A DNA stretch of 64,000 bases, taken from NCBI GenBank assembly GCA_016748015.1, contig JAAOMT010000659.1, forward strand, positions 313,222-377,221, in the 5' to 3' direction. The stretch comes from Geosiphon pyriformis uo1. Taxonomy: Eukaryota > Fungi > Glomeromycota. Numbering within the stretch: the first letter of the stretch is position 1; every line of letters starts with the position of its first letter. The position numbers and the translations under genes are program-made. Below, piece by piece: positions 15,050 to 44,227 of the stretch. The notes under the pieces are model-generated. The model saw only the letters and a program-made list of their open reading frames with translations, made no database searches and was not told the origin of the DNA.

Positions 15050-15064
15050 TTATTCCTTTCTTTT
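15050..15064 (-). promoter_or_regulatory. Polypurine tract of element A
   Basis: AAAAGAAAGGAATAA on the minus strand immediately before the 3' LTR. Confidence 0.9.
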
Positions 15065-15716: not shown

Positions 15717-18700
15717 AATCAATTTAATGTGTTGTTGTCAATATTAACAATTGGTTCCAGATCTTGTGGAATCTCATCTGGTTGGACTAGTATTTTCTGT
15801 ACTTCTAATTGTAGAATATTACTGGTAGATAGTAGTGTAATGTTGTGGTATGGTTTCAGTCAATCTCCATGTGCTGCTTTGGTTAAAATTTTGTTATCCA
15901 ATCTTAATTTGTAAGCTCTATTTCCTAGAATTTTTTCTATGTGAAATGGTCCATCTCATTTGGGGTCAAATTTTCCACTCCATTGTTTTTCTGCTTTGGT
16001 ACAATATAAGAGTACCTTGTCTCCAATCTTGAATTCAACTGGTTTGTCTAATAGTTGACTATCATGTCTTTCTTTCTGTTTCTTTTGTGACTTTTGAATA
16101 TTATCAGCTGCTCTTCTTTGTTTGTTTTCCAATGTTTCTATTAAGTCATATGTTCTTCTCAGCAATGTTTCTTGAAAATTCTCTTCTGTTATTGGTTCAG
16201 CTGGATATGTATTAATTTTTCTCTTTACTGGTAATGTTGCTGTTCTACCATATACTAATTTGAATGGTGTTGTTTGTGTAGTATTTTGCTTCATTGTCCA
16301 ATAAGCAAATAATACTGATGGTATAAATAAATCTTATTCATCCTGGTTTTTTTGGCTGAGTTTGGCAATTGCTTCATACAATGTTTTGTTGAATCTTTCG
16401 ACTAATCCGTTGGTTTGTGGATGGTATGGTGATAATAATGGTCTCTTAATTCCGAATTTTTGGCTCAATTCTGTTAATGTTCTGTTCACAAAATGAGTTT
16501 CTTGGTCTGATAATAATTTCTTTGGACAACTGTGTTAACAAATTAAATCTTAATGAATGAATTCAGCAACGAATTCTGCATTCGCTCTTTGAATTGCTTT
16601 CGCCTCTGGCCATTTAGTGAGATAGTTTATGGCTATTGCTATATATCTGTTCCCTCTGCTGGTAATTGTTAATGGTCCAACTAAATCAATTCCAATCCAG
16701 TCGAATGGTTGTCCTACTTTAATTGGTCTTAATGGTTTATTGGGTCTTGTTTCTTCTCTTTGCTGACAAGTGTCACAATTTTGAACATATTGGATGATGT
16801 CTGAATATATTGATGGCCAATAGTATCTTTTTCTGGTTCTTTCTATGGTTGTTTCTTTGTGAAAGTGTCTGGCTGTTGGATTTGAGTGCATGTTGAATAA
16901 TATTGTCTCTTTTTTTGGCTCTGTAATCACTCTGGTTGGCTGATCTGGATCCCTCCTATTTTTCTGATAAAGTATATTTTGGTGAGTGATAAAATATTTT
17001 GATTGTTGTTTGATCCTCTTTCATTCTATTTGAGATAAATTTTTCTTGAACTGTTGAGTGTTTATATAATGTTGGAGTTGTTGATATTTTTGTATGTTCA
17101 TCTTTTGTTATTTTTCGTTGATATTGTTCTGGTTTTGTTATATTTTTGGGTTGAAATGTTCTTAGATTTGTCTTATTTGCAACAAACCATTGGCATTTCC
17201 ATTGTTTTTTTCTTTCTTATAGTGTATAGTATAAGTATATTGTGATAGTGCTATTTTCTATCTGGATTGGCAACTGTCATCAAATTCTTGCTTTTGAAGT
17301 GATGTTAACCCTTTATAATCCGTGTATATATCAAACTTTTGGCTCAAGTATTTGTTCCACTTCATGACTGTCCAATAGATTGCTAAATGTTCTAGTTCTG
17401 GTGTTCCATAGTTCTTTTTGGCTGGTGTTAGACCTCGGCTGACATATGCTACTGGATGTTCTCTACCGTCTGGTCTCTTCTGAGATAGTACTGCTCCCAA
17501 TGCTTGGCCTGATGCATTGGTAGTAATGATAAATGGTTTGTTGTGATTTGAGTAGATCAGTACTGAAGCTTTAATGAGCTTTCTTTTGAGAATATCAAAA
17601 GCTTCTTGTTGACTTTCTGTCTATTCATATTTGGTATTCTTGGTTTGCAGATTATTGAGCAGTTGAGCTATTTTTGAAAAGTTTTTTATAAAGCATTGAT
17701 AATAGCTCACAAATCCCAAGAATGATTTCAATTCAGTCACATTGGTTGGTACTGGAAAGTTCTTTACTATCTCTATTTTCTCTGGATCCATTTTGATGCC
17801 GTCTTTATTGACTATGTGTCTTAAAAATTTTAGTTCTGTTTTGCCAAAGAAGCACTTTGTTGTATTTAACTTTAGTCCTGCTCTTCTTAACCTTTCGAAC
17901 ACTTGAGAAGATGATGAAGATAATCATCAAATGTTTTTGAGAATACATTGGTGTTATCCAAGTATACAACTACTAATTTCTACAATAAGCCAGTATAAAT
18001 AATTTCTATTAGTCATTGGAAAGTGGCTGGAGCATTGGTTAAGCCAAATGGCATCATCTCAAATTTGAAATTCTTTTCTCTAGTGGTGAATGCTGTCTTC
18101 TTTTTGTCAGCTGGATACATGGCTACTTGCCAATAACTACTGTCCAAGTCTAATGTTAAGAACCATTTGTTTCTACTGAAAGTGTCAAATAATTCCTGTA
18201 TTTGTGGAGTTGGATAGCTGTCTCCACGAGTTACACTGTTGAGTTTTCTGTAGTTCACACAAAATCAGATTTTCTCATTCTTTTTACGAACAAGTACTAC
18301 TGGTAATAACTATGGGCTCATTGATGGTTGAATTAGCCCATTGTCAAGCATTCGGTTTATCTCTTGACGGATGATTTCGTGGCTGGCTGGCAGCACTCTG
18401 TATGCTCTTTGTTTGATTGGCATTGCATCTCCAGTCTTGATCTGATGCTGGATGATGTCAGTTCGGCCAAACTCATTTTCACTGGCAAAAATGTCTTTGA
18501 AATTGTTGAGCAATATCTTGAGCTGCATATGTTAGAGTGGATCTAAGTTTCCCATGTTCATTTGTTCCAATTGTTTTGGTTGAAGTAAATAACATTTGTC
18601 TCGTCCATAGATTGTTTGTGATGTGATGTTGACATATCCACAAAGTTGTGGAAAGTCTAGAATGGGGTTTGGTGGTTGGTCTTCTATTTCTGTGGTTAAA

Positions 18701-20354
18701 TATCCTATGGTAGTTCTTTCTGGTATGTTGATGACATTGCCAGTGTTGTTGTAGATGGAAATTTTTATGCAACTATAGCTTTTGGCTAGTATGTGGAGAT
18801 TGATCAGTCCAATCTTTCCTGATTCACAAAGGCTTGCTTCAGCTTCAAAAATCTGTTCTTGCTTCTTTTCCTTCCTTTTTATTGCTAGCATGTACTGGCT
18901 ATATGGTGGAATGGAAATAGCTTGGCTGGTTGAGATAATTTTTCCTTGGCCAACAATTTCTTTCTCTGCCATATTAACTGGTACATCTATTCTACCTATT
19001 GACCCAAATTCCTGTATCCCTCTTGCTGTTATTCCTAACTCTTCCCTGTTTCCCACCAGTACTAACTGAGCTATCTTAACCAAAGATAAGAATATTGCCT
19101 GTGCTATCTTTTTGTTCGGCTTTATTATATAGGCCTTGTTTGAGTCATTTTGTAGCATAGTGATGATATTTCCCACATATTCTGCATCAATTATTCCTCC
19201 TCTTATATTAATTCTTCTTTTTGCTAAACTACTCCTAGATGCTAATTGAACCATTGTTGTTGCTGGAATTTCCAGTACTATTTTCAAATTGATGCAGGTG
19301 CGCATATGTGGTTCCAATTTAATGGTTTCTGTTCCTGGATATCTTTGATTAAATCCTGTATCAGTATCGTGTGCACATTCTGACATAATACCTTCATTAT
19401 TATTGCTGAACCATTTCAGTTTTTGTTTCTTGGTGAGGTCAGGAAGTGCAATATATTGTTCATAGTTTGAGTCAGAGTTTGAATTTGAGTTGATATTGTT
19501 GTCCTTGTCATTGCCATTTTGAACAGAGCTGGAACCATTATTCTCATCATCATTGTTGTCGGAGTTTGAATTGGGATTGAGCAGTGATTCCGACTCTAAT
19601 ACACAACTGCTGATTGGTTCTTTTTCTTCAGGGATCATGTAGATCATGCATGGTAGTGGATTGTAAATGAGGTCACAATTGTCACAATATTCAAAGTCAC
19701 TGAGAATTAAACAATGGTGACACAGTCTTGTATTCAACTGTGCTAGCCATTGTTCTTGCTCTTCTCTAGTGGGTGCCAAGTTCTGGTAGTGTTTATGGAA
19801 CTCTTCTGGTTCCAGAAAATTTATAACTGGCTCTGTGTCCCAGTCAAGCTCGATGGGTTCTGGTGGGTTGTTTTTGATTTCTCTGATCTCTTCGGGTGTC
19901 ACTCCTTCTATTTTGCCAATTGCCATTCTCCAAATTTTGTTATTGTCATGTGAACAACTGTCCAGTTGCTGCACGGCTCTTCTCCAGGCTGTTTCTATTG
20001 GTGTTTCTTTCTTTACCCAGTCGCTTATTAGAATTGTGTATTGACATGACGTGTCACACATTCCTTCATGTCTTGGGATGTTGTTCCACATCTCTTCATC
20101 TAGCAGGGTCTTCCCACAAGCGAGACAAGGTTGATTATCCCATTTTTCTTGCCTCTTTGGTCATCCAAAGCATTCGAATAAGCATGGATGACAGTAGAAC
20201 TTTGTTGTGGTGTGGTATTCCTCATTGTTGCCACAGCATGTGCCCATTGATAACAGTTTCTTGCTGCAATCAATGCATACAAGCCTTGGCCATCAATAAT
20301 TAGATTGTTGTGGAGTGTGGTAAGTGTAGGAATTATAAATGGCAGCAGTTGGTG
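15717..20354 (-). pseudogene. Element A pol, 3' part: Cys-rich domain, dUTPase, RT, RNase H, integrase
   Basis: RSSLAK / GGIIDAEYVG / KIAQAIF / RGIQEFGS (dUTPase); MPFGLTNAPATFQ and YLDN (RT); HPVAY..NYGTPELE (RH); HHCC, IGIDLVGP, NGLVERFN, GPF (IN). Confidence 0.93.
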
Positions 20355-20358
20355 GCAT

Positions 20359-21442
20359 TGTTATGAGTAAACTTGGTGGGTATGGGAAATGGTAACATTT
20401 GGTGCTCTCAATTATTAATGATGCGTCTTCCGTGTAATTCTGTCGGCTTAGTCTTGATTATCAGTCTCTAAAGGTCTATTCCTGGATGTAAATTTTACCC
20501 GTTGAGTTTTTTGGTTATAAGGCACAGAGTTTGTCTTTCATCAATTGCAATGTTTTTCATAAATGTGAGCTTTCTTCTCCAAGCTAATGAGCGCAGTTGT
20601 TAGGGTCTGGCGTTGTCTTTTCGCCCTTCTAGTAAGTTAACAAGATAATGTTAATATTCAAAACTTAGGGGGAGCTTCCTTCTTTTACCAGGCTATCATG
20701 AAGTTTATTCCCAAACAGTTGATTTTACTATGTTGCTGCTCCACAAAAAATTAAGACAGAAAAAGAAAGAAAAAGAAAAAGAAAAGAAAAGAAAAAAGAG
20801 AAAAGATAAATTAGTATCATCAATTGCCGTGATCAAAAGTGATTGGTCCAAATCATTAATAGGTTCGAGGCAGTTATACTAAGAGCATCTATTCTAGAAT
20901 GGAAGTATGAGACAAGGGTTAATTTACGTAAATTTCACGAAGTTCGAGAACATGAATTTGCGATTCTGATTTCTTTTAATAATTGATTTATTTCAGGAGA
21001 TAAAATAGGGAAGATAATAAAGGATGAAGGGATATGGATATTTTAATTTCTGGTCTAAAGGTTCATATTTGTTTTTTCTTCTCTGTCTTTTCTCACTTCT
21101 ACAACTACTTGCTTTTATACATTCTTTTGGTTTTACAGGATTGCTTTCAATTGTCTCACTATTGCTAGCTATTGCTTTGTTGTTTTTGTTATTGCTTCGT
21201 TTTTCTATGTTATCATTAGTTATCCTATGTTATAACATGTTATCTGACATTATTCTGTGTTATTCTGCATTATAACACGTTATCCTATGTTATTGCGCAC
21301 TATTCTGTGTTATTCTGCATTATAACACGTTATCCAACGTTATAACACATTATCCAATGTTATTGTGTATTATTCTGTGTTATGTCATGTTTTTGGTCAC
21401 GTTTCTTCATAACTTTGGATCGGTTTTTCTACTCAGGTAACA
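20359..21442 (-). repeat. 3' LTR of element B
   Basis: TGTTA...TAACA; PPT AAAAAGAGAGAGATAA at 21443-21458; ~11-bp tandem array at about 21220-21385. Confidence 0.95.
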
Positions 21443-21456
21443 TTATCTCTCTCTTT

Positions 21457-22191
21457 TTAAAATTGAGCTCCTGCGAAACTGTATGTATCTGTTATTGTGG
21501 CTTCATTCGTGTAATGTTCGATTGTTGCCTCGAGTATTGTCTTTTGTAGGTCTTCGAACTGTTGATTGGTTATTTGTCTTATGCTGTTAACTGTTATGGT
21601 TTTCATAGATCCATTCAGTAGTACATTTGGACAATGTTGGAAGGCGGCGTATAGTCAGTATGCTGCTTTGTAATGTAGGGTCAAGTTGTTTTTCCCTATG
21701 AATTTTTCTACTTGTTGTATTGCTTCTTTGTTGAACGTTTTCTGGCTGAGGTCTTCGTATAGTGTTTTCAAGTCAAGCTGTTCTCCAATTTTGTAGAACC
21801 AATAAGCTGGAGGAAGTCTTTCTTTCCATTCCTGGGCATTGTTAGATGTTCACTCCCCTGTTTTGAAGAGTTTGGTCCCATGAGCTAAAGCTTGTTTTAT
21901 TTCTTTGAACTCAGAGACCAAATATCTTCTTTTGTAACTTTTTTCTTGTTCTTTGTCTCCTTCTTTTCCATTCCCCACCCGAAGGCAATTTTTCCTCCCA
22001 CATTGCCTTTCGGGTGGTGGGTAGAGGAAAGAATGTTTAGTTCTAATTGAACTCTTATCCTCCCCTCTCCTGCTCTTATCTTTGTATCATATCTCTTTTT
22101 TATTAATTGTTATTTCTATTTAAGATGTCAATTTTTGAATTGTTTCAAATAATTGTTTAGATAATTTTAAAATTTGATCTGAAAAGTCTAT
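21457..22191 (-). pseudogene. Element B accessory ORF3 (~245 codons, start ATG>ATA, several stops)
   Basis: (M)DFSDQILKLSKQLFE...PPAYWFYKIGEQL...KAAY*LYAAFQHCPNVLL..ITVNSIRQITNQQFEDL...FAGAQF*. Confidence 0.8.
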
Positions 22192-22269: not shown

Positions 22270-25200
22270 GTCTACATTTCGATGACAATGATTGGTTTCA
22301 GATTTCATGGTATATCTTCTGGTCTGATTAATGAAATTTGTGTTCCTAGTTGAGGTATTGATGATGATGATTCCTGTTTTACATGATAAATTTTTAACCA
22401 ATTTCTATGCGCTACTTTCTTTAAAATCCTGTCTTCTAATCATAATTTGTAAGTTCCATTTCCTAATGCTTCGTGTATGTGGAATGAACTGTCCCACTTT
22501 GGATCAAACTTTCCACTCCACTGTTTCTCAGTTTTTGTATGATATAACAGTACTTGGTCTCCAATCTTGAATTCCATTGGTTGTTCTGGCAGGTGTTTAT
22601 CATGTCTTTCTTTTTGTCGTTCTTGAGCATGACTAATATTGTCAGCTGCTGTTCTTCGATTGTTTTCCAATGTTTTCATTAGCTGGTACATTTTTTGGTG
22701 TAAGATAGCCTCAAAATTCTCTTCATTGATTGTTTCTGTTGGGTATAACAGTATCACTCATTCAATCGGTAACGTAGCTTTTTTTTCATAGACTAGTTTG
22801 AACAGTGTGAACTGAGTCATATTTTGTTTCAATGTTCGGTATGCAAAGAGTACAGAAGGTATAAATAAGTCCCATTTTTGTCTGTTTTCATGACTTATTT
22901 TTGCTAATGCTTTGCATAGTGTTCTGTTAAACTGTTCTACCAGTCCGTTCGTTTGTGAGTGGTATGGTGACGATAAGGGTCTTTTTATTCCAAACTATTG
23001 GCTTAGTTTAGTCAACGTATTATTAATGAAGTGTGTTCCCTGATCAGATAATAATTCTTTCGGACATCCATGTCGGCAAATTAGGTCTTGATGCACAAAT
23101 TCGGCAACTGTTTTAGCATCGGCCACTTGGATTGCTCTGGTTTCTGGCCATTTTGTAAGATAGTCTATGGCTATAGCAATATAGCAATTTTCTTGGGATG
23201 TAATTGAAAGAGGTTCAACCAAATCGATCCTGATTCTATCAAATGGATTTCCAACTGGAATGGGTCAAAGTGGTTCTGTTGATCTTGCTCCTTCTTTTCG
23301 CTGGCATGTGTTACAATTGAGCACGTATTCGAAAATGTCTTTGTGCATCATTGGCCAATAGTATAAGTTTAGTGTTCTTTCGAGGGTAGCGTCTTTGTTA
23401 AAGTGTCCTGCAGTCAGATCTGAGTGCACGCTATATAGTATAGTTTCTTTTTCACTGTCTGTGATTAGTCGTTGTGGGTTGAGATGGTTTTGGCATTCTT
23501 GTCGATATAGTTGGTTGTCTTGAATAAAATAATTTTGGGCTTGTTTTCATATGGTACTCTGTTCCTGTTGAAATAATATCTCCTTGAAACATAGTGTCGA
23601 TAGATACTGATGTAGTCATTAATAAGTGAGTGTGTCCATGAGTCTGGGATTAGGTTTGTGGCATCTTCAACAAACTGTCGGCATTGGTGTTCTTGGATCC
23701 TTCTTTGTAATGGACTTTGAGTGGGAATTGTTGCAGATAAGTACTCCATCTCGCATATTTTTCTTCTAGTTGTGGATTGTTGAGTAACCAAATAAGTCCT
23801 TTGTGGTCAGTATATAGGTCAAATAGTTGACTGAAGTAATGTTTCCAAGTTTGTATGGCCCAATAAATGGTGAGACATTCCAGATCTGTTGTGCTGTAAT
23901 TCTTTTCTGCTGGACTAGTGCTGCGACTAGTGTAGGCAACTGGGTGTTCTCTATTGTCTGGTCCTATCTGTGATAAAACTGCTCCTAGAGCATTTTTCGA
24001 GGCATCCGTAGCGACAATGAACTATTTAATGAAATCTGGGTAAATCAGAATTGGGGATGTGATTAATCACTGCTTGAGATAGTCGAATGCTTTCTGTTGA
24101 TCTTCCTTCTACAAGTACAGTATGTATTTGGACAACAATTGATGGAATGGTTTTGTGATGTTCAAGAAACCTTTGACAAATTGACGATAATATCCTGCTA
24201 ATCCTAGAAATCCTCATAATTCTCTGAAGTTGATTGGGGCTAGAAAATCCTTGACTTTTTGTACTTTATCTGAATCGGATTTAACTCCGTCCTTGCCGAT
24301 TACATGTCTTAAGAATTTTAACTTGGTTTTTCCAAAGAAGCATTTCTCAGAATTGAGTTTCAATCTGGCACTACAAAAGCATTCGAAGATTTGTTGCAGG
24401 TAGAGCAGATGGTCTTCAAATGTTTCGGAAAACACGTTTGTGTTGTCTAAATAGACTACTATTGATTTCCAAAGAATTCCTTTGTATACTACATCCATCA
24501 GGCATTGAAACGTGGCAGGAGTATTACAAAGTCTAAAAGGCATTATGTTAAATTTGAAGTTTTTGTCTCGAGTAGTAAACGCTGTTTTTCCTTTGTCTTT
24601 GGGATCCATTTCAACTTGCCAGTAACCACTTACTAAATCTAATAATGAGAACCATTTCTTTTTCCCTAGATTGTTCAGAATTTCCTGGATGAGGGGAGTG
24701 GGATAACTATCTCTTCGCGTGATGCTATTTAGTTTTTGATAATCTACGCAGAATTGCACTTTTCCATTTTTCTTGGTGACCAAGACTACTGGCGAGAACC
24801 AAGAGCTTAACGATTCTTTGATTAAGCTGTTATCAAGCATTTGTTGCACTTCTTGCTTAATTAGGTTATCACCAGATGGGGGTATGTGGTAAGCTCATTG
24901 CTTAATTGGTCGAGCATCTCCTGTATCAATCTAATGCTTCACAATGTCGGTGCATCCGAACTCATTTTTGCTGGCAAAGACATCGGCATACTGATTCAGA
25001 AGGACTTTGAGTTGCATTTGTTGCAGGGTACTTAAATTTTTTAAATTCAATTTATTGATTTCTTCTAGTGTGAACAAGTAACTTTCCTTTTGGCAAATTC
25101 CATACTTGTGAAGTAATGTCACAGAATAAGAATAATTGTGCGAAATCTGGAATGGACTGGGGTTTTTCAGGATTCTGACTATCTGCAGATATGGAACTGA

Positions 25201-27290
25201 CGAGGGTCCCTTCAGAGATTTCAATAACATCTTCTGTCGGGTTGTGAATGGGGATTTTGAAGTGTTTATGAGCTTTGGCCGATAGGTATAGATTAGCAAC
25301 ATTGGCTAGGGAACAGATTTCAGAACTGGCTTCGAATAATAGGGCTTGATCTTGGATCTTTCAATTCACCTTAAGGATGTATTGTCAGTATGGGGGAATG
25401 GAGATGACGGTGTCGGTGTGAATAAATTCTACCTGGTCACTGTCTTTCTCCGTAAAATTAACTGGTATGTTTCCTTTTCCACTTGATCCAAACCCATTGA
25501 TTCCTTGGGCAGTGAGGCCTAACTCTTCTTAGATTGTTACCAGGGTTAATTGGGGTATTTTGACTAGGGGTAGAAAGATAGCTTGGGCAATCTTTTCTTG
25601 TGATTCTATTTTGTAGAGTTTGTCCAAATTGTTCTGTAGCATCATGATGATGTTTCCCGTGTAACCAGCATTGATAATTCCTCCTTTTATGTCAATTCTT
25701 TTCTTGGCTAGACTAGATCGAAAGGCAACTTGTACCATTGTACTAATAGGAATTTCTAACGCTATCTTAAGATCTATTTTTACGAGAGAATGTGGGGCTA
25801 TAATGATGGGTGATTGTCTGGGGTATTGTAGGTCGAAACTGGCATCAGTGTCATGTGCTCTTTCAGAGCAAATTCCTTCCTTGTTGTCACTGTACCATTT
25901 TAGCTTTAGTTCTTTGGATAGGTTGGGATACACGAGATACTGTTCTGTTTCGGTATCCTCAGTTGGATCTTGAAACAACATGTCCTCGGTGATCAATACC
26001 TCTTCTTCAAGTTCAGGTAGTTTGGTGATTGGAAACAGTATTCTTGAAGGCAGATTGAACATAAGATCACATTCATTACAGTACTGGAAGTGACAGGGGA
26101 TCAAACAGTGATCACATAGTTTGGTATTCAAATTGGCCAACCTTTGTTCCTGTTCTTTGTGAGTTGAGGCCAATTCCTGATATCAGTTCTGAAATGTGTC
26201 TGGGTCATCTGTGAAGAAATCATCCTCAGGGTAGTTGGGTCCAGTATATTTGGGCGTCCAAGGGTTGTTCTTAATTTTTCGTATTTCTTCGGATGTGGCG
26301 TCTTCGGCCTTGGCGCTTGCCATTCTCCAGATTTTGTGGTTATTGTGTAGATAACCGTCTAGCCTGTTGAGTGCTTATTTCCAAGCGTTCTCAATGGGGA
26401 TTCTCTTTCATACCCAATCGTTGATTAATATGGTGTATTGACAAGCCTTGTCATATGTTCCTCCTCTGCCAGGCACATCATTCCAGAGTCTTTCATCTGG
26501 CAGGATTTTGCCACATGCGAGGCACAGTATGTGGTCTCACTTGCTTTGTCGTTTTGGTTGTCCAAATCTTTCCAGTAAACAAAGCCTGTAATAGTATTTG
26601 GTGGTGGTGGGCCATTCTTCATTGTCCCTGATACATGCGCCCATAGTGGATAGTTTTTTTCCACAATCAACACATATTAGTCTTGGGGTTGGTAAAATAA
26701 GTTTCTTTGGTCTGAGGTTATGTATCCTAGTGATGACAATTGGGGTTCTTCTTCGGCTCTGTCTTTTCTTTTTTCTTCCCAGGTTGGTGGTGGGGGTAGT
26801 TCAGTTCGATAATCATCCGCCCATGAAACCTGATAGGTCTCGATGATTGATGGCATTGATGTGTCTTCAAATTCAATAAGAGGTTCCTCGGTACATTGGT
26901 TTTTAAAGTGTCCACACATAGCTGGGACTTGGGCATGCTGTCCATTAAACGTGAGTTGAAGTTCTTGGGTGTTCCAGTTGAGAGTAACATTGGCTTTTGA
27001 CAACCAGTTGTTTCCTACTAGAGCTTAATATTGAGTAGCTTCCATGATGAGTACTTTGGTAGGGATTTGGATTCCATTAATCTCGAAAAGGAAGTTGTCA
27101 ATTTTTCCTATCAGGGTTTTTGTGTTTCTATCAGCTGTAATGATCTGGGTGGTAGCAGCACAGTCTACTCAGTGACCTAGTTGGTCCATGAGCTGCTTCA
27201 TGATTATGCTACTGGCTGATCCACTATCCAAGATTAATTTAATGTCTATTCCTCCAACTCTGGCATTGGTGTATAGGGCTGTTATTGGTT
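22270..27290 (-). pseudogene. Element B pol: protease, Cys-rich domain, dUTPase, RT, RNase H, integrase
   Basis: LILDSGSA (PR); DASFDLQYP / RSSLAKK / GGIINAGYTG / KIAQAIF / GINGFGSSG (dUTPase); YLDN (RT); LLSDQGTHF (IN). Confidence 0.93.
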
Positions 27291-27299
27291 TATTCTGAT

Positions 27300-29439
27300 T
27301 GATGGCTGCTCTACTAAAAAGGCTATGTGTGTTCAAATTATTGATGTTAAAAGGAAATATGGTGGCTAGGGTAATGTCTTTGGTAATAGTGGCTGGTGGG
27401 ATATTGCTTTTTGTTTGCTTGGAAGGTTGGGAGATTTGTTTTATATCCCCCCCTTTTACAGGTGTAGATTTATCAAAACCCTAGTCTTCTATAAGACCGA
27501 GATAGGAAGCTTGATTTGGGTATCCAGTTGGTGTTGGTTGAGATTGGGCAGAACCACGAGGGATTAGTCGAGACAGTTTATTGTTAGTTTGCACCTGATT
27601 GTTGTTGGGATTCCTCCATCCCTGATTATAGTCTATAACTCAAGATCTGGACGGGCTGTAAGGGAAAGTTTGATAGTGAAAGATTGCTTGTGTCATTGGT
27701 GGTGGTGGATAATAATTCTGGGGCAGTAGTTGAGTGTACGAGACTTGTTGTGTGTATAGAGACAGTTAATTCTGAGGTATAGAATATTGGGGTACTATGT
27801 TTTGCTGATATCTGAGTTGCTGGTATGGGTTTCCTTGATTTTAGTCCATGATCTTTCTTCTGCAGTCATGGGCAATGTGTTCAGATTTCTGGCAGTAGTA
27901 GCAGTTATGGAGATCAGATCTCCAAGGTTGTTGCTGTTGCTGATGGTTCTGTTGCTGTGGGTATCTGCTGTTGTTGTTATTTTCTCTCCGTTGGGGTGAT
28001 TGGTAAGTTCCTGTAGTTCCAGCTAAGAATCTCTCAATTTTCTGAGTTAGTTTCTCACTCAATTGGGTTATCTTTGCGTCGATGTCAGAGGTTCCGTTAA
28101 TGGCTAAATTAATGGCTTGGATATGGTTCACTTCTTGTTTTGCAGACTCAAAATCACGAGTGAGAGTGATGGCATCTTGTAAACTGATCGGATGGCGGGG
28201 TCTTACAGATCTTAGAATACTACTCCACAATTCTTTAATGAATTGATTAAGAACTTGTGCTGTGGTGTAATAGTTCTTTTCAATAGCTAATATTTGATGT
28301 AGGATTTGATTGAATCATCCAAGATAAGTAGTTACTACTTCATAATCTTTTTGTTTAATTATGCTGAATTGATTCTGCAATCAGATTAATGTATTGGGAT
28401 CACAGAAGTATTGCAGAAATGCAAGTTTAAACTCAATAAAGGAGGTAGGCTTCTCTGCCAGGCTCTGGTACCACGAATTGGCGGTTTCAGTCAGAAAGAA
28501 TGGCAGTGTCTGAACTGTGCAGTCATTGTTCCAACCATTAGCGGTAATTGCTTTCTTGGCATCCGCGATCCAAGAATATGCGTTATCTTCTTCACCAGAG
28601 AATTTTTCCAATTTAGTGATATCCTAGTAAGCCATGATCCAGTTAATGGGTGGGGTGTTACTGGTTATGTTTAAAGGGATTGGTGTCCGTGTATTCGAGT
28701 GTTCTCTGGGTGCTAATGCTGATTGCTTTCCTTTGTCACTTAAACCAATAGGTTGTAAGATAGCTGTTTCTTCTATCAGAGGAGATGCTGATTCTGCTAG
28801 GTTTTGTGCTGGTGGCTGTTCCCAAGTTGATGGGTTTCCTTTTGTTTGACTGGCTGCTGGGTTAAGATTTCCAAACAGCGATCCGTATTTTCCTAGTGAT
28901 TTGGTCCAACTGTGTTGATTCCAAGGGTGTGGATTTCCAGAAGTTTGTGGTGTTTCTGACTGGGTTTCTGGAAGTGGGTTGAACACAATTCTACTTTGGG
29001 GTGTCTGATAGTATAATGGAGTTGTTGGGGAGAAGACCCTTGGTTTCTTGTTGACCATAGACTTGGCTTGGGCAGTTATAAGGTTGTTGGATTTGTTTTT
29101 GTATTCCTCAGGGTTAGATTCCACTGGTTGTTGTACTTAAGGGAATCATTGTGCCACATAATATTTAATGTCTGTATCAATTATACACAGAGTTTCAGCA
29201 ATTGCTCAGGTAGTCGTGGCTGTTGAGTACCCTAGTAAGCTTTGATGGATTTGTTTTCCAAGTCTTTCTGTATTAGTTGCGCGGCCTAACAAGCAGTTAA
29301 TTTTTGCGTTGATATAGTTACAAAAATCACTTTCTGCGTAAGCAGTTCCTGCTGGTATTCCTAGGTCTTTTTGGAAGTATTGAAATAGTGCTTTTCCGTA
29401 TGAGGAGTGGTCTTTTCTTATTGTTCCAATAGTCACCAT
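27300..29439 (-). pseudogene. Element B gag with CCHC zinc knuckle
   Basis: KFSGEEDNAYSWI..NGW..ANSWYQSL capsid-like block; CYYCQKSEHIAHDC knuckle. Confidence 0.88.
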
Positions 29440-29480
29440 TTTTATGTATTTTTGGGGGTGCTCTGTCTCTGTGGATTTAT

Positions 29481-29499
29481 AACCTCACAGGGAGCACCA
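29481..29499 (-). promoter_or_regulatory. Primer-binding site of B (TGGTGCTCCCTGTGAGGTT), elongator tRNA-Met-like
   Basis: 2 nt from the 5' LTR end; complement AACCTCACAGGGAGCACCA ends in CCA. Confidence 0.85.
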
Positions 29500-29501
29500 A
29501 A

Positions 29502-29902
29502 TGTTACAGGTAAACTTGGTGGATATGAGAAATGGTAACGTTTGGTGCTCTCAATTATTGATAATGCATCTTTCACATAATTCTGTTGGCTTAGTCTTGA
29601 TTATCAGTCTCTGAAAGTCTATTCCTGGATGTAAATTTTACCCGTTAAGTTCTTTGGTTATAAGGCACAGAGTTTGTCTTTCATCAATTGCAATGTTTTT
29701 TGTAAATGTGAGCTTTCTTTTCCAAGCTAATGAGCACAGTCATTAGGGTCTGGCATTGTTTTTTCGCCCTTCTAGTAAGCTAACAAGATAATGTTAATAT
29801 CCAAAACTTAGGGGGAGCTTCCCTCTTTTACCAGGCTATCACGAAGTTTATTTGCAAACAGTCAATTTTACTATGTTGCCGCTTCACAAAAAATTAAGAC
29901 AG

Positions 29903-29939
<37 letters not shown>

Positions 29940-30609
29940 AAAAAAAAGAAAAGAGAGAAAAGATAAATTAGTATCGTCAATCGCCATGATCAAGAGCGAT
30001 TGGTCCAAATCATTAATAGATTCAAGGCAGTTATACTAAGAACATTTGTTCTAGAATGAAGGTATGAGACAAGGGTTAATTCACGTAAATTTCACGAAGT
30101 TTGAGAACATGAATTTGCGATTCTGATTTCTTTTAATAATTGATTTATTTCAGGAAATGAAATAGGGAAGATAATAAAGGATGAAAAGGTATGGATATTT
30201 TAATTTCTGGTTTAGAGATTTATATCTGTTTTTTCTTCTCTGTCTTTTCTCACTTCTACAACTACTTGCTTTTATACATTCTTTTGGTTTTACAGGATTG
30301 CTTTCAATTGTTTCACTATTGCTAGCTATTGCTTTGTTGTTTCTGTTATTGCTTCATTTTTCTATGTTATCACTAGTTATCCTATGTTATAACACGTTAT
30401 CTGATGTTATTACATGTTATTCTGTGTTATTCTGCATTATAACACATTATCCTACGTTATTGTGCACTATTCTGTGTTATCCTGCATTATAACACGTTAT
30501 CCAACGTTATAACACATTATCCAACATTATTGTGTATTATTCTGTGTTATGTCACGTTTTTGGTCACGTTTTTTCATAACTTTGGATTGGTTTTTTTACT
30601 TGGATAACA
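29502..30609 (-). repeat. 5' LTR of element B
   Basis: Colinear with 20359-21442; expanded A-run at about 29903-29937. Confidence 0.95.
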
Positions 30610-30613: not shown

Positions 30614-33611
30614 TCCTTCTTTCTTTTCTTTTCCTTTTCCCTTATCTTCGTTCCATTCCCAACTGGAGGCTTCTTTTTGTTTATTGTCGGTCCAAGTCAA
30701 ATTGTCGGTTTTCCAGGTAAGTTTGTTTGTTTGTTTTTCTTTCCCGTTGTTGTCCCAAGAGAGTATTGGTGGCAGCTCATTGTGCTCTTCATCAGCCCAT
30801 GACACTTGGTAGGCTTCCCAGGTAGGTTTTGGTTTTTTTTCCTCAAAGTTGATTAGTGGTACTGTGGTGTTGGTAGCCTTGAAGTGGCCACACATTGCTG
30901 GTACTCGTGTGTGTTGCCCGTTCTGGCTGAGTTGAAGCTCTTGTATATTCCAGTCCAGAGTGGCGTTTATCTTGGACAGCCAGTCATTACCAACTAGAGC
31001 TTGGTATTGGGTGGCTTCCATAATGAGTACTTTAATTGGTACTATGATGCTGTTAATTTCGATTGGTAAGTCATTGATTTCACCAATTGGAGTCTTGGTC
31101 GCTTCATCAGCCGTGATGATTCTGGTGCTAACAGCTTAATCAACTTGGCAACCTAATTGATCCATGAGTTGTTGTGTAATTATGCTGCTTGCTGAACCAC
31201 TGTCAAATGAGATGGCCATCAATTTTCACATCAGTGTACATAGCGGTAATTGGCTTTTCTTTTAGTGTGGCTCTCCTAAATAATAGCATGATTGATGATT
31301 TCTCGAGTTCAAATAGAAAAATGACATCCAGTAATTCATCGTTAGTGACTGTTGCTGGCGGAATATTGCTGGTATGTGTTTGTTGTTTTTGGGTGAGTTC
31401 CTGGTTGCTGGGTGAGGCATCTTTTGGGGTAACCAGAAGACTTAAATAGTTCTGGGAATTCGGGTTTTGGGGATTTCTGGTGCCCGAATTCCATTGACAA
31501 GATTCTGTTTAACTGAAGGAGCTGGGGATCAGCTGATGTACTACCATTAACAATCTCCAGTTTTGCTGCGTGATTCTTGGTCTTTGGACTCCACTGGCCA
31601 ATAAGTTTTGTGGTGGGGTCTAAATTGTTTGGGGTTGATAGATTGTTGGCAGTTGTGGTTAATATATTATTTATGGCTGTGGCTGATAAATTGGGGTTGT
31701 TGGTTAATAAATTGGAGCTTGATATACTGGTGGTTGATAAATTGATTGTTGCATCATTGGCAAATAAGTAGTTTGATATTGTGTTGAATTTGATTGATAA
31801 TTTGGAGTTGAGAACCGGCGATTGGGGTTTCAATATTGATTTCCCGATTATTGGTTATTTAAACACTGGCAGCAGTCGATTTGAATATGTTCTTGTTTAT
31901 CACAATAGTGGCAGATACGCGTTTTCTGTTGCCACTGTTAATTGGTTGATGAAGATAGATGTGGTTGATTTTGGCCATGAGTAGAGTTTTCTTGATTATT
32001 GCATCATTGTGGAGGCTAATAAATGGCATGATTGTCAGCTAAGTATTCTTCTAATCTCTTATTAATTGATTTACTGAACTTTTCCAATTTGGAATCCAAT
32101 TCAGATGATCCATTTATTACTAGATTAATGGCTTGGGCATGGTTGGCCTCTAACTTAGCAGATTCAAAATCTTTGATGCATGTGACTGTGTCTTAAAGTG
32201 TGCCTGGATGCAACAGATGTACATGTTGCAGGATGCTGCTGTGTAGGCCACGGATAAACTGGTTGAGGATCTGTGGTGCTGTGAAGTAGTTGGCATTAAT
32301 TACTTGAATTTGGTGCAGATTTTGATGGAAGCATCCCAGGTAAGTGGTAACTGCTTCAGTTTTTCTTTGTTTTATGGTGGTGAATGTGTTAACTAGGCGA
32401 TTAATGCTGTTATTATTGCTGAAGTATTTTAGGAATTCCACTTTGAAGGCCTCAAAATCTTGTGGTTTATTAATCAAGCTCTGGTACCATGAATTGGTGG
32501 TATCTTTGAGAAAGTAGGGAATGGCTTGCATTGCCCAGGTGTCATTCCATCCATTGGCTGTGATGGTCTTTTCTATATCATTCAGCCATACTTGAGCATC
32601 ATCTTTTTCACCAATAAAGTTGTCAAGTTTTGTGATTGGTGCGTAGGCCATTGGATCTAAGTTGGGTGGTTGTGATGGCTGTTAAAGTGGTTGTTGAAGA
32701 GGTAATGGTTGTTGGGGTGGTACTTGAGGTGGTTGAATTGGCTTACCAATCGGCTCAATTGGTGGTTGATTGATGACAATAACTGGAGGTAGATTTTGCT
32801 GATGAATTAACTTGGGGTTTTGATTTCTTTGATTTGGTGGAATTTGAATATTTGGAGTTTCAATTTCCAAATTTTCTAAATGTTGCTGAGTTTGAATGTT
32901 TGGGTTTTCTAAAATTGGGTTTTGGTAATTAAATTCCTGATTCTTGTCTTCTTCTTCTTCTGATTTAGTAAATTCCCAAGAACTGATGGTTTTGAAATCT
33001 GGCTGATGAGATGGTGATCAAAATCCTAATGGTGTTGGCGATCTCAATTTAAATTCTTCAAAATAATTGCCATATGCTCCTAATAGTTTGTTTTTCTTTT
33101 GTTTACTCTGAAATGCGATTCTTGCTAGCGGTATCTTTGTACTGGTGGACGCGTCTGCTGATGCAATGTTGATGGTACTTCTGGGTGTGTGATGGTATGA
33201 TGGGTATATCAAAGATTCAATTCTTTATTTCTTCCGGTTAGGAATTTGTATTTCTTTGGGTGTTACTGCTGGTGTCTGTAGTTTTCCTTTGCCTTTGTCC
33301 TGGTAAGTAATAGGGAATGTCTTTTGTGTATATTTTTTAATTTCTTGGTTGATTTCTCTGATGATGAGTGCAAAGCTGTGATTTCTGGGTAAGTTGGTGT
33401 GTTGGATTAGTTTCAAATAGAAATTTTCTCTTGCTGATTCAATGTTAACTAATCTTTCTAGAAAATCTGTGATTTTTTTGTTGATGTAGAAGTTGAAAGC
33501 TGATTCTGCTGGGTAATGGTTGTTGTTTAGGCCTAGCTGCTGGCTGTATTGTTGAAATAAGAATTTTGCGAATTCTAGATGATTTGTTCCTATTATTTCT
33601 GATTCTGTCAC
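30614..33611 (-). pseudogene. Element A gag and protease
   Basis: APITKLDNFIGEKDDAQVWL..NGW..NSWYQSL; CHYCDKQEHIQIDC knuckle near 31860-31915; DSG motif near 31200 with a small frameshifting deletion; QALVGNDWL. Confidence 0.9.
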
Positions 33612-33653
33612 TTTTGGTTTAGTGTTGTCAGTGCTGGTTTTCTGTAGGATTAT

Positions 33654-33671
33654 ACCTTACAAGAAGCACCA
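33654..33671 (-). promoter_or_regulatory. Primer-binding site of A (TGGTGCTTCTTGTAAGGT)
   Basis: Same as the B PBS except three C>T/G>A transitions; 2 nt from the LTR end. Confidence 0.85.
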
Positions 33672-33673
33672 AA

Positions 33674-34543
33674 TGTTATAGTTGAATTATTTGAAGTCTC
33701 CAGTCAAATAACAAACTTGTAACTTGGTGTTCAAAAGCTATTTCCATCAATGATATTCTGAAAGTATTGTATCTGAAGGTTTTGATAGAATTCTTTGTAT
33801 AATGAACAGAGATTTGATAGTGTGGCGATTTGTTGTTTGTTGTTAGTTGTTTCCTAATTTTTTTTTCAGCTTGGTAGCCGGATTTATTCTGGCAGTCATG
33901 CCTTTCTGGTAAGCTAACTGATAATATATATAAATCTACTTTTATTTCTGGGTTTTTTACCAGGCTATCTGTGACGTCAATAACTCAGCGCTTTTAATCT
34001 CCAATTAATTAGTAGGCACAACAAAATCAAAAAAAGAAAGAAATAAAATAAAGAAAATAATGATGATGAAGATAAGCCAAGGCAATTTGATAAGTTAGTA
34101 TCTTGTCAATAGCCATGATCAAAAGCTATTGTTCCAGTATGGTTAAGTATCAATTATTATCAACATGAAGTGTTGATAGTGGAGAGTGGATTAAAATATA
34201 AAATAATTATATATTTGATAATTGGAAATTGAAAGGTTGCTTAAATTAATCTATACTAAGAGATCTGTTTTTTCAGCTTCTAATCCTGCTGCTATATATA
34301 CATAATTGAGATTTCTCAATTCCTTGATTCTTCATGACAGGAATTCTGGAATTCCTGGAATCTTGCAATTCCTTTAAGAGGAATCTTGGAATTCTGAAAT
34401 CTTGCAATTCCTTGTCAGGAAATCCTGAAATTCCTGGAATCCTGCAATTCTTGGAAGGAATCCTGGAATTCCACATTTACTACACCTACTTCTAATTGGC
34501 TACTACTTATGCTAATATATTTCCTATATTTCTATGAGTAACA
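33674..34543 (-). repeat. 5' LTR of element A
   Basis: 870 bp, TGTTA...TAACA, colinear with 14180-15049. Confidence 0.95.
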
Positions 34544-37500
34544 ATGACCACCCCATCAAACTAATCTTAGACAGTGAATCAGCTGGCAGCATTATCACAA
34601 GACAACTTATAGATCAATTAGGTTGTCAAGTTGATTGAACTGCCAGTACTAGAATCATAACAGCTAATGGAGTGACAAAAACTTTGATTGGTAAAATAGA
34701 CAACTTACCTATTGAAATTAATGACATCATTGTGTCAATCAAAGTATTAGTCATGAAAGCCACTTAATATTAAGCCCTCGTTGGCAATAATTGGCTGTTC
34801 AAAACCAATGTGACATTTGATTAGAACACACAAGAGCTTTAACTCAACCAGAACGGTTGACATACATGGGTACCAGCCATGTATGGCCACTTCAAAACTC
34901 TCAACATGCCAGCACCTCTTATTAAGTTCAAGGAAGAAGAGAAAAAACCTACTTGGGAGGCCTATCAAGTATCATGGGCCAACAAAGACCACAATGAGTT
35001 ATCTCCAATACTCTTGTAGAGTAGTAACGAGAAAGAAAAGAAAAAAGAAGAACCTACCTGGAATTCCGACCAAGTCTGAAGAACCAATGACAACCAAGAA
35101 GAGCTAATAGATTGGGAATGGGAAGAAAAGACAAAAAAAAAAGAAAAGGGGAAAGAAGAAGGATCAATATCCACCAGCATCATCACTTATAATTCTTACA
35201 CTATACTACAGCAATTTGCTTATCACCACCCAAAACTGGTATGCATTAATTGTGGCAAAAAATTGTTGTCAATAAGCACTTGTTGTGGCAATGATGAGGA
35301 ATACCAGACAGCAACCAAGTTCTACTATCACTTATGCATCATAGAACATTTTGAAAGACCAAAATGAGTGAGAAAATGGGATAATAAGCCATGCTTGGCT
35401 TGTGGAAAAACTCTCCTTGATAAAAGAATGTGAAATGACATTTTTGGGAGAGGAAGAACATGCGACAAATCATGTCAATATATAATTCTCATAAGTAACT
35501 GAGTGAGAAAAGAAACATCCATAAATGCCATCTGGAGACATACAGTCAAATGATTGGACAAATGTCCACACGATGATGACAAAATCTAGCAAATGACACT
35601 TACCAAAATCGAAGAAGCATCACCAGAAAAAATAAAAACAATTAAAGATAACTTACCTGAACCCATAGAACTTAATTGGGACCCAGAACCAGTCATAAAT
35701 CTACTAGATCCAGAACAATTCCACAAACACTATCAGGAATTAGCACCCACTAGAGAGAAACAAGAGCAACAGTTGGAAAAAATTAACATTCGACTATGTG
35801 ACCATTGTTTGATTTCCTGTGACTTTCAATATTGTAATGAGTGTGACCTCATTTACAATCCACCAATCTGCATGATTTACATGATCTCAGAGGAAAAAAA
35901 ACCAATCAGCAGCTATGTATCAGAATCAGAATCAAATTTCAACTCTAATTCAAACTCTAACAATGATGATGATAAAAACAATGATTCCAGCTCCATTCCA
36001 AATAGCAACAAAAATTACGATGATTCAAACTCTGATTCAAACCCCAAAACATTTATTGTATTTTCTGACCTCACCAAGGAACAGGAACTTAAATGGTTTA
36101 GCAATAATGGTGAAGATATCATGTTAGAACGCACACATAATACTGATGCAGGGTTTGATCTGAGATATCCAGAAAAGGATGCCATCAAATTGGAACCCCA
36201 TTTATGCAGTAGTATTGATCTCAAAATAGTACTAGAAATTTCAGCAACAACCATGGTTCAATTAGCATCTAGGAGTAGCCTAGCAAAAAAAAAGATTAAC
36301 ATCAGAGGAGGAATAATTAACACAGGATACATAGGAAATATCATTGCTATACTACAAAATGATTCAGAAAAAGCATATATTATAGATCCAAACAAAAAGA
36401 TAGCACAAGCAATATTTCTACCTCTGGTTAAAGTAGCTAAATTAGTATCAGTGAGAAACAAGAAAAAATTAGGAATAACAACAAGAAGGATACAGGAATT
36501 TGGATCCACAGGTAGAATAGATGTACCAGTTAATATAACAAAGGAAGAAATTGTTGACAAAGAAAAAATTATCTCAACCCATCAACCAATTTCCATTCTA
36601 CCATATGACCAGTATATGTTAGCCATAAAAAGAGAAGTAAAGAATCAAGCTCAGTTGTTTGAAGCAGAAGTCATCATTTGTGAATCAGGAAAGATTGGGC
36701 TTACTAATCTTTACATATCAGCCAAAAGCCCCAAAAACATCAAAATTCCCATTTACAACACAACCAAAAATATTATTGAGATACCAAAAGGAACTATCAT
36801 TGGATATTTAACCATTAAAGTTGAGGATCAACCACCAAACTACATTTCAGATTTTCCACAGCTTTGTAAATACATGGACATTACATCACAAACTATTTAT
36901 GGACAAAGTGAATGTTATCTGCTTCAACCAAAACAATTGGAACAGATAAACATGGGAAATTTAGATCCACTCCAACAGATGCAACTAATGATATTACTCA
37001 GAAATTTTAATGACATCTTTGTTAGCAAAAATGAATTTGGCTGCACCAACATCATCTAGCATTAAATCAAGACTGGAGATGTAATGCCAATTAAACAAAG
37101 AGCATACAGAATACCACCAGCCAGCCATAAGATTATTCATCAAAAAATTAACTGAATGCTTAACAATGGGCTAATTTAGCCATCAATGAGCCCATAGTCA
37201 TTATCAGTAGTACTGGTCCAGAAAAAGTATGGAAAGATTTATTTCTGTGTGGATTATTGAAAACTAAATGGAGTAACCAAAGGTGATAGCTATTCAACTC
37301 CAAAGATCCAAAAACTATTCAATGTTTTTGGAGAAAATAAATAGTTCTCAACACTAGACTTAAACAGTGGTTACTGGCAAATAGCCATGAACTCAGAAAA
37401 CAAAAAGAAAACAGCTTTTACAACTCGAGAAGGAAACTTTGAATTTGAAGTAATGCCATTTGGCTTGATGAATGTACCAGCAACATTCCAATGGCTCATG

Positions 37501-39813: not shown

Positions 39814-40449
39814 ATGAAAATACCAGATTATATTCACACTTTAATTCAACAATTATTCCAAACCATAAGTCAACAACAGTTAAACATAGAAATTATTATT
39901 AACAACCAAATAATTTGCTATCGAAACACCAAAAGAAAGACAAAAAATACACCATATCAGCAATCACTAAAGAATGATAAAAACTGGACAGATAAAATAA
40001 TAGAAAAAGTAAAAACCACTTTTGAAAAAATACTTATTATAGCACCAACAAAAGAGCTTACAAAAGAAAATTGAAAACAATAAACAAAATGACTTCCAAT
40101 ATTATATTGCTACTACCAGTTAGGTCAAAAGTTGAATATTCAGAAGTTGTATATCAACAAATCTAAGAGAATATTCAACCAAAACATAATACAACAAATT
40201 GAAGAATTTATTAGAAAGAAAACAAATTCAACACTACATGTCAAAACAATATACCAACTACACAACATATTTCGGAACTATCTAGAAATACTGTTATATT
40301 CTGACATGGAAACCATAACCATCAACCAATGGGAAAGAATGAACAATACACAAGTAGAAGACATGAAAAACAGAGTCGAACAAACAATACTTGAAAAAGA
40401 AGTATTAGAATTAATTCAAAACAAAAATTTTGATAAAGCTCAATATTAA
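39814..40449 (+). pseudogene. Element C accessory ORF3 (212 codons, internal stops)
   Basis: MKIPDYIHTLIQQLFQ...FDKAQY*; ORFs 39814 and 40132 are in one frame. Confidence 0.85.
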
Positions 40450-40464
40450 AAAAGAAAGAGATAA

Positions 40465-41246
40465 TGTTATTCATAAAAAAAAAAAACAGATATAGAAAAA
40501 ATAGTAAACCAATAAGAGAGTAGTAGTTAGCATGTAAGCATATTACTCAGTAATGTAAGCATTGCTAGAAAAATTATAGCACATTGCTCAAGAGTATAAG
40601 CAATCTTGTAAAACTCAAATTATGTATATATAGTGATAGCATTAGAAATAGAAAAGGCAGACCTCTCAGTTTAGATTTTATCTAAGCAATCTTCCAATCC
40701 ACAAAATATCAAATAAATAATTATTCTCTATCTTAAATTTACTCTCCACTATTAACACTACATGTTGATAATAATTGATACTTAACCATGCTAGAACAAT
40801 AGCTCTTGATCACAACTATTGACGAGATACTAACTTGCAATTGCTTTTGTTCAATTCTTTATCTTTTGCTTTATTTTTTTTTATTTTCTTTATTGTTTTA
40901 ATCTTATTGTTGTTTACTAATTGATTGAGAATTAAAGCACTGAATTATTAATGTCACGAATAGCTTGATAAAAAACCCAGAGATAAGGATAAGAATATAT
41001 ATTAATAGATAGCTTACCAGAAGGACATGACTACCAGATTAAACCAGCCACCACACTGAAGACAGAAATTGGAAAAACCACTTACCAATCACATCGACAT
41101 TGAATCTCTGTTTATTATACAAAAAACTCAACTCTAAAACCTTTAAATATTCTCAACACACCAGTATTACCAGCATTAGTAAGACATTGAGCACCAAGTT
41201 ACAGATTTGTTATTTGATTTAAGACTCCAAATAATTATCTGTAACA
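40465..41246 (+). repeat. 3' LTR of element C (782 bp)
   Basis: TGTTA...TAACA; alignable with the reverse complement of LTR A from the GTATATATAG box (about 40624) onward. Confidence 0.92.
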
Positions 41247-42029
41247 ATGTTAACTCTTTCCCAGGAATTGCTTGTCTGGAAGTTCACTAAGAATGTGTAG
41301 TTATTTTGCTGGAAAAGTCAACTCTTTTACAGGAATCTTGTCTGTAGGCTACTTTAATAATTATAATAAGAAAAAAAAGAAAAATAAAAGAAATGTAAAA
41401 GAAATAGGATTTTATCAAGGGAAACATTTTCTATCCAGGCCTGGAGTCACTAACAAATTATTGAAATTGGTAACCAATCAATTTCAAAACGTTAGTTGTG
41501 TTGAGAAAATTTCAAGTACAATAATTTAAGGATTTGGTTTTCAAATATTTAATTTTTATTTGAATATGTAAAAAGTGATTTGTTTCAATTAAGATATCTA
41601 AAGTAAGATACTATATTAAGATGCTATAAGAAAATTAGAAGATACATTTTCTTGAAAAGAGAAGTTCTTCTTTTATACAACTTGTTATAGTACTATTCTT
41701 TGCACTTGTACTTTTCTCTTTGTTACAATTTGGGTGAACTAAAAATATATTTTGGCAAACTACAAGTTATTTCACTGAACTATTTGATTATTTTAGCCAA
41801 TTTCTATTAATTTCGGCGAATTTTGACTATATTAAATGGTTCAGAATATTGTGTAATTTGATCATCTTAATTTCTAGAGTACAAATTGAATTATTAATTG
41901 AATAATAATATTTGATAATTTAATTAAATAATAAGTGATAATTGAAATAATAATGATATATACTAATTAATAATAGGAATTATAAGAGTAATTTCATGCT
42001 AATTAATAGCTAAAATTCTACTGGTAACA
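41247..42029 (-). mobile_element. Probable truncated LTR of a fourth family (D)
   Basis: Ends in GGTAACA exactly where the ORF1 relic breaks; has a purine tract and terminal short repeats in the same order as LTRs A and B; no partner LTR in the window. Confidence 0.45.
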
Positions 42030-43370: not shown

Positions 43371-44227
43371 GGTTATAAAATTAAGAAAACAAAAAGTTTG
43401 TTTTTTTTTCTTTGTATTTTTTTATTTTTATTTTATATTTATATATTAATTTTGTATTTAACATATTCAAAGAAATATATTTGTTAATTGTAAAAAATAC
43501 TTTGTAAATAAAAATAATTAAAACAATTTTTATTTAAAATAAACTAATATTATTTAATTTATATTACCAAAAGTATTTAATATTAAATAGAACATATTAA
43601 ATTATAAATATTCAACAATTTTAATTTTAATAACTTAGATTCTATATAAAGAGAAATTTATTGCTATTTAAATTAATAAAAATATGTATTTTGGTAATAT
43701 TAATTTATTATAATTAAAAAATTAATTTGTTTAATTAAAAAATTATTTCAAAGTTTTAACAAAAATTTATGAAATATTTAATTATAAATATTATATTTTT
43801 AAAAAAAAATCAAAAAAATCAAACACAACAAAATATTAAGTATATTTAAATTTATTATGATTATAACATCTTTTTTTTCAAAATATTATATAATAAGTTT
43901 TAATTTTTGGCTTAAAAACAATTTATAAACAGTATTTTCTTGCATAAAAACTATTAAATAATAATATAACATCTTGTTTTGGTGTTTTTTTAACAATACT
44001 AAATTTTTTATGTAAATATTAAATTCAAAATATGCTTATTATTAAAAAAATTTTCTTTATAAATTAGTTTTATTTTATTTAATATCTAGTAAATACAAAT
44101 TGTATTTTTACAATAATTAATTTTAAAGTTAATATTTTAACAGTTATTTCAAGTTTGAATTTATTTTTAAAAAAAGTAAATTAAATATATTAATTTTAAT
44201 TTTATATTAACAAAAAATACTACATAT

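Follow-up and report, generated by a model that had tools for sequence, protein, structure and literature searches.

A hairpin that joins U5 and primer binding site (PBS) is known from HIV-1. In other retroviruses, the U5-PBS segment of MLV is opened by the nucleocapsid protein NC (PMC11181671), and a U5 stem adjoins the PBS of RSV (PMC5445492). The 5' PBS of the yeast element Ty3 tends to pair intramolecularly (PMC11381356). Tf1 is described as having an 11-nt primer that is the 5' end of the RNA itself, a PBS that is not tRNA-like, a fold of three duplexes and a chromodomain-bearing integrase (PMC7175516; bioRxiv 2022.12.06.519325). The order of conversion between tRNA priming and self-priming is treated as a matter of speculation (PMC3601003).

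Here, we describe a PBS flanked by complementary arms in Ty3/gypsy elements of the fungus Geosiphon pyriformis. The window, by which we mean the whole stretch of 64,000 nucleotides analysed (contig JAAOMT010000659.1, positions 313,222 to 377,221), carries a fungal gene for a myosin-motor chitin synthase (50726-55938) and three decayed Ty3/gypsy elements, A, B and C, each with a dUTPase between protease and reverse transcriptase (RT) as judged by Pfam. Element A lies on the minus strand between a 5' LTR at 33674-34543, whose end is at 33674, and a 3' LTR at 14180-15049, the two being 88% identical; no clear target-site duplication was seen at 14170-14180 and 34543-34570. Element B, also on the minus strand, is nested in A, and its LTRs (5', 29502-30609; 3', 20359-21442) are 90% identical and flanked by the target-site duplication GCAT. 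Element C is on the plus strand and 5'-truncated, with a 3' LTR at 40465-41246 and neither 5' LTR nor PBS within the window; it starts in the middle of the protease, directly at the 5' LTR of A. This abrupt start and the missing clean duplication of A together suggest a rearrangement.

The LTR ends (TG...CA), a Ty3-type capsid and the position of RT-RH ahead of the integrase place the elements in the Ty3/gypsy group (Metaviridae). The RT fragment of B (24214-24894, minus strand; Pfam RVT_1) is of Ty3/gypsy type, and its best solved relative is a Ty3-type RT (4ol8, 7q5b). The dUTPase of B (25529-26182, minus strand) matches the Pfam dUTPase model, the dUTPase regions of the three elements being 18532-20160, 25529-26182 and 35590-37059; a literature search combining Geosiphon, gypsy and dUTPase found no paper. 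A capsid fragment of A (32193-32681, minus strand) matches Retrotrans_gag and Ty3_capsid, and its relatives were Geosiphon pyriformis gene models in 120 of 120 cases among the matches listed. Downstream of the integrase, each of the three elements has an extra reading frame (~15050-15600, 21445-22000 and 39900-40460); the three frames resemble each other and have no Pfam match. Decayed frames on both sides of the gypsy cluster (13700-14179 and 42000-43450) are unrelated to gypsy proteins and presumably resemble another mobile element, and an AT-rich inverted repeat of ~800 nt (82%) occupies 44228-45031.

A and C share 75% identity over ~650 nt of LTR and 76% of RT amino acids, and the RT identity of this lineage to B is 63%. 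A and C therefore count as a single LTR lineage, of which C lacks a PBS in the window; the hairpin discussed below is accordingly represented here by two lineages, not three. Transitions account for nearly every difference between paired LTRs (82 of 83 in B, 94 of 101 in A), and the elements are poor in CpG (0.32 vs 1.03 in genes).

The PBS of B is an 18-nt site of elongator tRNA-Met type at 29482-29499 (minus strand), separated from the LTR end by a TT spacer (29500-29501); A has the same 2-nt spacer at 33672-33673. It matches the CCA-bearing 3' ends of tRNA-Met(CAT) at 17 of 18 positions, 17 contiguous and including CCA, the tRNA genes compared being those of other organisms in viral contigs and not the host's own. 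Genes ending in the PBS complement were matched 17 times in viral contigs; ARAGORN identified tRNA-Met(CAT) in all 17, with a G1-C72 pair that we take to be an elongator-type mark. Because the scan pattern forced the T-loop, what this result tells lies in the anticodon and in the fact that exact matches exist. Both its distance from the LTR end and the length of its match bring the PBS within the definition used for a tRNA-primed element, namely a start 0-5 nt from the LTR end and no fewer than 12 nt complementary to a CCA-bearing tRNA 3' end. The PBS of A (33654-33671, minus strand) is the 18-mer of B with three transition decays, and its undecayed form is found in the A-type gene model P0267. 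The two sites differ only by such decay-type transitions, whereas their leader partners differ. Ten of the 18 bases (9-18) fall outside the U5 arm, and they still match the tRNA in A as well as in B, two elements with 63% RT identity. A sequence-only reading of this DNA had proposed a tRNA-like PBS of 18 nt reaching beyond the hairpin in A and B, and this is borne out.

In U5 of B, an arm at 29535-29550 (minus strand) repeats the PBS/LTR junction (29492-29507) in inverted form. It consists of 8 nt complementary to the PBS, the complement of the spacer, one mismatch at the last A of the LTR and 5 nt complementary to the LTR end. The 16-nt copy announced by the sequence-only reading is real and exceeds chance expectation, and all the coordinates given there were confirmed on re-checking: the arm of the 5' LTR matches the junction at 15 of 16 positions and that of the 3' LTR (20392-20407) at 16 of 16. 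Among 1000 dinucleotide shuffles of the complete B LTR, the best had 14 matches and none had 15, and the fold z-scores are -2.9 for B, -2.6 for A and -3.1 for the inner stem of C. The perfect 16-mer of the 3' LTR is present as described but is likely a product of CpG decay and not the original form. At 29539-29540, where the window has CG, related contigs show T at 29539 in 51% and A at 29540 in 31% of the depth; the divergent contig X2 keeps CG, and the gene model P0150 reads STKRY there. As T and A are the two products of CpG decay and P0150 reads CG, the active B arm, judged from these letters, likely had a C-A mismatch opposite the last A of the LTR. The bulge of A and C involves the same LTR-last A, so that the discontinuity is common to both lineages and the perfect 16-mer is not.

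The family-wide letter counts refer to B only and to 40 of 71 variant rows listed; among these, none falls in 29541-29550, an outcome with a chance expectation of ~1 in 4, and decay of dead copies is no measure of selection. A second, weak copy complementary to the PBS, absent from the sequence-only reading, lies in the loop of B (29510-29522, minus strand); it is worth -7.1 kcal/mol alone and has a predicted pairing probability of about 0 in context. Positions 29509-29521 are without substitution in X2.

The arm recurs in the other lineage. In the 5' LTR of A it occupies 33719-33732 (minus strand) and runs on into an inner U5 stem (33674-33723); in the 3' LTR of A it lies at 14225-14238 (minus strand), and in C it is intact at 41189-41202 (plus strand), with the inner stem extending to 41245. 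The 9-mer of C is perfect, a result equalled by a single one of 2000 shuffles of the final 100 nt. Both LTRs of A keep 8 of 9 positions, a score reached by 20 of 2000 shuffles for the 5' LTR (A5) and 12 of 2000 for the 3' LTR (A3). An arm intact in C and eroded in A, as had been claimed, is thus what we see. The broader claim of conservation in all three elements is not confirmed in that form, since C has no PBS in the window and the lineages are two. The distance from arm to LTR end is 49-60 nt.

The contig X2 carries a divergent LTR end without PBS, in which the arm is kept with 0 substitutions next to 5 gap positions in the loop; directly upstream of the arm lie just 28 letters, unrelated to the 97 of B. 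In B, in A/C and in X2, conservation of the arm starts at the same G, each time after TT. The translation of the A-type arm is found in 27 of 249 Gag-like proteins (picked by motif and representing related copies), with at least three loop types. One of them, P0267, combines in a single frame the A-type arm, a new loop and the undecayed PBS (FGAPCE), introns in the model being possible; a protein search with its arm-PBS stretch matched nothing but P0267 itself. Both-sided change was seen in 0 of 15 pairs of the A/C inner stem (three sequences), and the duplex between arm and PBS cannot covary since the PBS is constant. The hairpin structure is, in sum, real and recurring.

A conserved CTCTGTnnnTTATA block is present in 5 of 5 LTRs (B, 29659-29672, minus strand; A, 33798-33811; C, 41106-41119). 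It lies upstream of the arm by 113 nt in B, 70 nt in A, 74 nt in C and ~44 nt in X2, and from its sequence it may be a putative TATA-like or poly(A) element. Several contigs (X1) share the last 20-30 LTR bases of B and the upstream block while skipping the 66-125 nt between them (29516-29648); these are other LTR families.

Searches further afield returned little. The LTR-PBS junction pattern was not matched in any of the viral, metagenome or genome contigs scanned, nor the hairpin pattern in the viral contigs; capsid-alignment scans of viral, metagenome and genome contigs and a single RT query against viral contigs found no relative. An RT alignment search recovered 13 distant elements (40-54%), in which a scan of too little refinement to yield a background rate detected two incidental matches but no convincing case of a tRNA-type PBS preceded upstream by a complement of at least 9 nt. 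A gypsy element with a baculovirus F-type envelope domain was seen among the viral contigs (L019, 948-8108).

The PBS also has complements downstream, not reported by the sequence-only reading. In B, leader arms at 29457-29463 and 29469-29476 (minus strand) pair with it in a predicted fold of -18.5 kcal/mol, and 2 of 2000 shuffles were as low. The corresponding arms of A (33630-33648, minus strand) give -12.0 kcal/mol, a value that 151 of 2000 shuffles equalled or undercut, so that in this decayed element the hairpin alone does not reach significance. The consensus of the A and B leaders has 14 pairs with none broken; both-sided change affects 2 of the 14, in a comparison of two sequences where decay or register effects may account for it. 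The blocks common to the two leaders are those pairing with the PBS. In the A-type models, the matching leader peptide TS[TI] is found in 31 of 45, and the next five residues take ten forms, these models being related copies and not independent.

Since the PBS is complementary both to the LTR upstream and to the leader downstream, the RNA is predicted to fold over the site. All structures are predictions on decayed copies. In B, the two states, with the arm or with the leader on the PBS, lie within ~1 kcal/mol of each other (-31.2 vs -31.9 kcal/mol with the window letters and -32.3 with majority letters). The predicted winner depends on where the RNA begins and on individual letters (arm pairing 0.03 to 1.0): the leader state is ahead (0.69-0.88) when the 5' end lies between 29550 and 29660, and the arm state when it lies at 29680 or higher. 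If the RNA begins with the arm itself, the PBS is predicted to pair with the leader at 0.79 vs 0.11 with the arm, or 0.62 vs 0.32 with majority letters. In A, the arm state is predicted to dominate (0.84-0.97). The PBS is predicted to be closed in either state, and the earlier idea of a switch at this site is supported.

Within the PBS there is a stop after which the gag frame is open, and a GTG in an A-rich context follows ~45 nt later (29437-29439 in B and ~33612-33614 in A, minus strand). The apparent ATG of B at 29437-29439 is GTG in 99% of related-contig depth; A-type models have V at the GTG position in 44 of 45, and conservation rises downstream. From these sequences, a non-AUG start of gag is possible. 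An HIV-like U5:AUG helix considered for B (29530-29539 with 29432-29441; 14 of 5000 shuffles) was dropped because 99% of the depth reads GTG and pairing with majority letters falls to 0.04-0.28. Splicing across the PBS, as drawn in some gene models, was rejected as evidence: frames and acceptors differ between the models. The ATG of these PBS-spliced models is a CpG-type variant, and A3 has ACG.

We consider it probable that these are tRNA-primed elements whose PBS is gated by competing arms in cis, in the manner of retroviral U5-PBS structures. Priming would likely rely on the host elongator tRNA-Met. In the closed RNA, PBS bases 1-8 and the LTR end would be held by the U5 arm, and bases 10-18 by a short hairpin with the leader; in an alternative fold of nearly equal predicted energy, the entire PBS would be paired with the leader. 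The 18-nt tRNA end would then anneal, presumably helped by Gag, and displace both arms, and the U5 stem would remain just upstream of the primer, comparable to the retroviral U5-PBS and U5-IR. Cofolding with the tRNA-Met of L002 was favoured by 6.6 kcal/mol in B and by 1.3 kcal/mol in the decayed A, the U5 stem being left standing. A gate of retroviral type, defined by a PBS paired in cis that tRNA annealing is energetically able to open, is thus found in prediction only. Such a site is likely opened by tRNA binding only, and self-priming becomes less probable on this view.

Under the Tf1 mode of self-priming, the RNA would have to begin with the arm and the poly(A) site to fall within the final 40-50 nt of the LTR. 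The sequence-only reading had raised a self-priming or dual system; its hairpin and tRNA-type PBS stand, and for self-priming the tests run (clade, chromodomain, pretzel fold, energies) lean against it. Transcription would have to start at or just before the arm, with an RNase H cut near the conserved discontinuity releasing 8-10 nt of arm to prime as in Tf1, either together with tRNA-Met or in its place, which we regard as unlikely. The common G after TT at which arm conservation begins, the spacing between arm and LTR end, and a duplex that extends into the U5 stem and breaks at the last A of the LTR in both lineages all agree with such a primer, and the 10-nt match of B comes up to the 10-bp self-primer rule of PMC6317226, applied here to an LTR segment whose complement starts 0-5 nt after the LTR end; by the same rule (PMC6317226), the arm of A and C, just 9 nt, is too short. 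The full tRNA PBS is retained, the arm covers only 8 of its bases (-14 kcal/mol vs -37.9 for 18 nt), and the duplex break would leave a spacer of 0 nt in B and 1 nt in A/C. The TATA-like block stands at no fixed distance from the arm (44-113 nt), and for an RNA beginning at the arm the leader fold is predicted to win in B. The RTs of the window fall outside a chromovirus branch (98%) that holds the chromodomain-bearing L024 and L026, in a quick, midpoint-rooted tree that has no Tf1 row; no Chromo match at E 0.1 appeared in nine of nine frames of A, B and C, where X at stops and decay lower the power. The third pretzel duplex, in which LTR sequence pairs with sequence that follows the PBS (definition from bioRxiv 2022.12.06.519325), did not stand out from shuffled sequence in any of 5 LTRs, 268 to 854 of 1000 shuffles having paired as well (C was tested with the downstream sequence of B). 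Three defining features of the Tf1/sushi group were tested and none was found; the elements are not members of it. A dual variant, in which a non-chromovirus gypsy element bears a full tRNA-Met PBS and an LTR mimic of the CCA end and a two-state fold set by the start site picks the priming mode, seems to us equally unlikely. If true, it would be a living intermediate between the two priming modes that arose outside the Tf1 clade.

The remaining readings concern the purpose or origin of the arms. It is quite improbable, in our estimate, that selection kept them for concealing the PBS from host Argonautes and 3' tRNA fragments and not for timing priming: the U5 arm does cover exactly the bases read from the CCA end, the two arms combined span the site in full, mammalian LTR elements are reported to be silenced by 3'-tRFs by way of the PBS (PMC7472051, PMC12853362) and 30 AGO genes are given for a related fungus (bioRxiv 2021.03.30.436303), but gating alone explains the same structure. 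We see only a slight chance that the arm is a neutral relic, a single fold-back or template switch having copied the tRNA/LTR junction into an ancestral U5 from which it was inherited. That it reproduces the primer/strong-stop junction letter for letter, that B has two such copies and that the A/C inner stem shows no covariation would suit this origin; yet the arm is still present in copies whose loops and flanks cannot be aligned or differ in length, and it stops where the complementarity stops. Least probable of all is a role at the DNA level, by which the arm copy in minus strong-stop DNA would fold onto the tRNA end and the first DNA bases and free the primer for the first strand transfer. 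The arm spans exactly the tRNA 3' end plus the first copied bases, from which the role would follow, but this leaves the leader arms unexplained and would probably expose the tRNA end to early removal by RNase H.

Gating of a tRNA-primed PBS, even as the conservative reading, extends a retrovirus-style control to a strongly expanded fungal gypsy family; LTRs represent 41.2% of the G. pyriformis genome (PMC11952901). A full tRNA PBS next to a Tf1-shaped arm also outlines a short conversion route, by a longer arm, a move of the start site onto the arm and loss of the tRNA match. A warning follows for annotation: an LTR match of at least 10 nt, commonly taken as a sign of self-priming, can also occur in an element of tRNA type. 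The arrangement itself, a tRNA PBS with arms on both sides, was not described in the literature searched, which included few subscription papers.

Several known systems resemble it in part. Like the GalEa copia elements with their Conserved Hairpin Site, the elements described here have a conserved hairpin at the PBS position, a downstream arm and a variable loop, whereas GalEa elements are described as having neither a tRNA PBS nor a U5 complement (PMC5445492). Like Ty3 of S. cerevisiae, they are Ty3/gypsy elements of tRNA-Met type, and the 5' PBS of Ty3 pairs with itself when the tRNA is absent (PMC11381356); Ty3, however, uses the initiator tRNA, a bipartite PBS and distant partners, in contrast to the single 18-nt elongator-type PBS and the local U5 and leader partners found here. 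With Tf1, Tf2 and Tj1 of the Tf1/sushi group they share an LTR segment complementary to the PBS and continued by a duplex with the U5 end. They differ from Tf1 by the full tRNA PBS, of which the arm covers 8 bases, by a third duplex and a chromodomain that were not found, and by an RT of another clade. In MLV, a tRNA-primed 18-nt PBS also sits in a structure formed in cis and is opened by nucleocapsid (PMC11181671). Unlike retroviruses, these are fungal Ty3/gypsy elements in which the U5 arm exactly copies the tRNA CCA end and the LTR end, and in which a second arm, of nearly equal predicted energy, lies downstream of the PBS.
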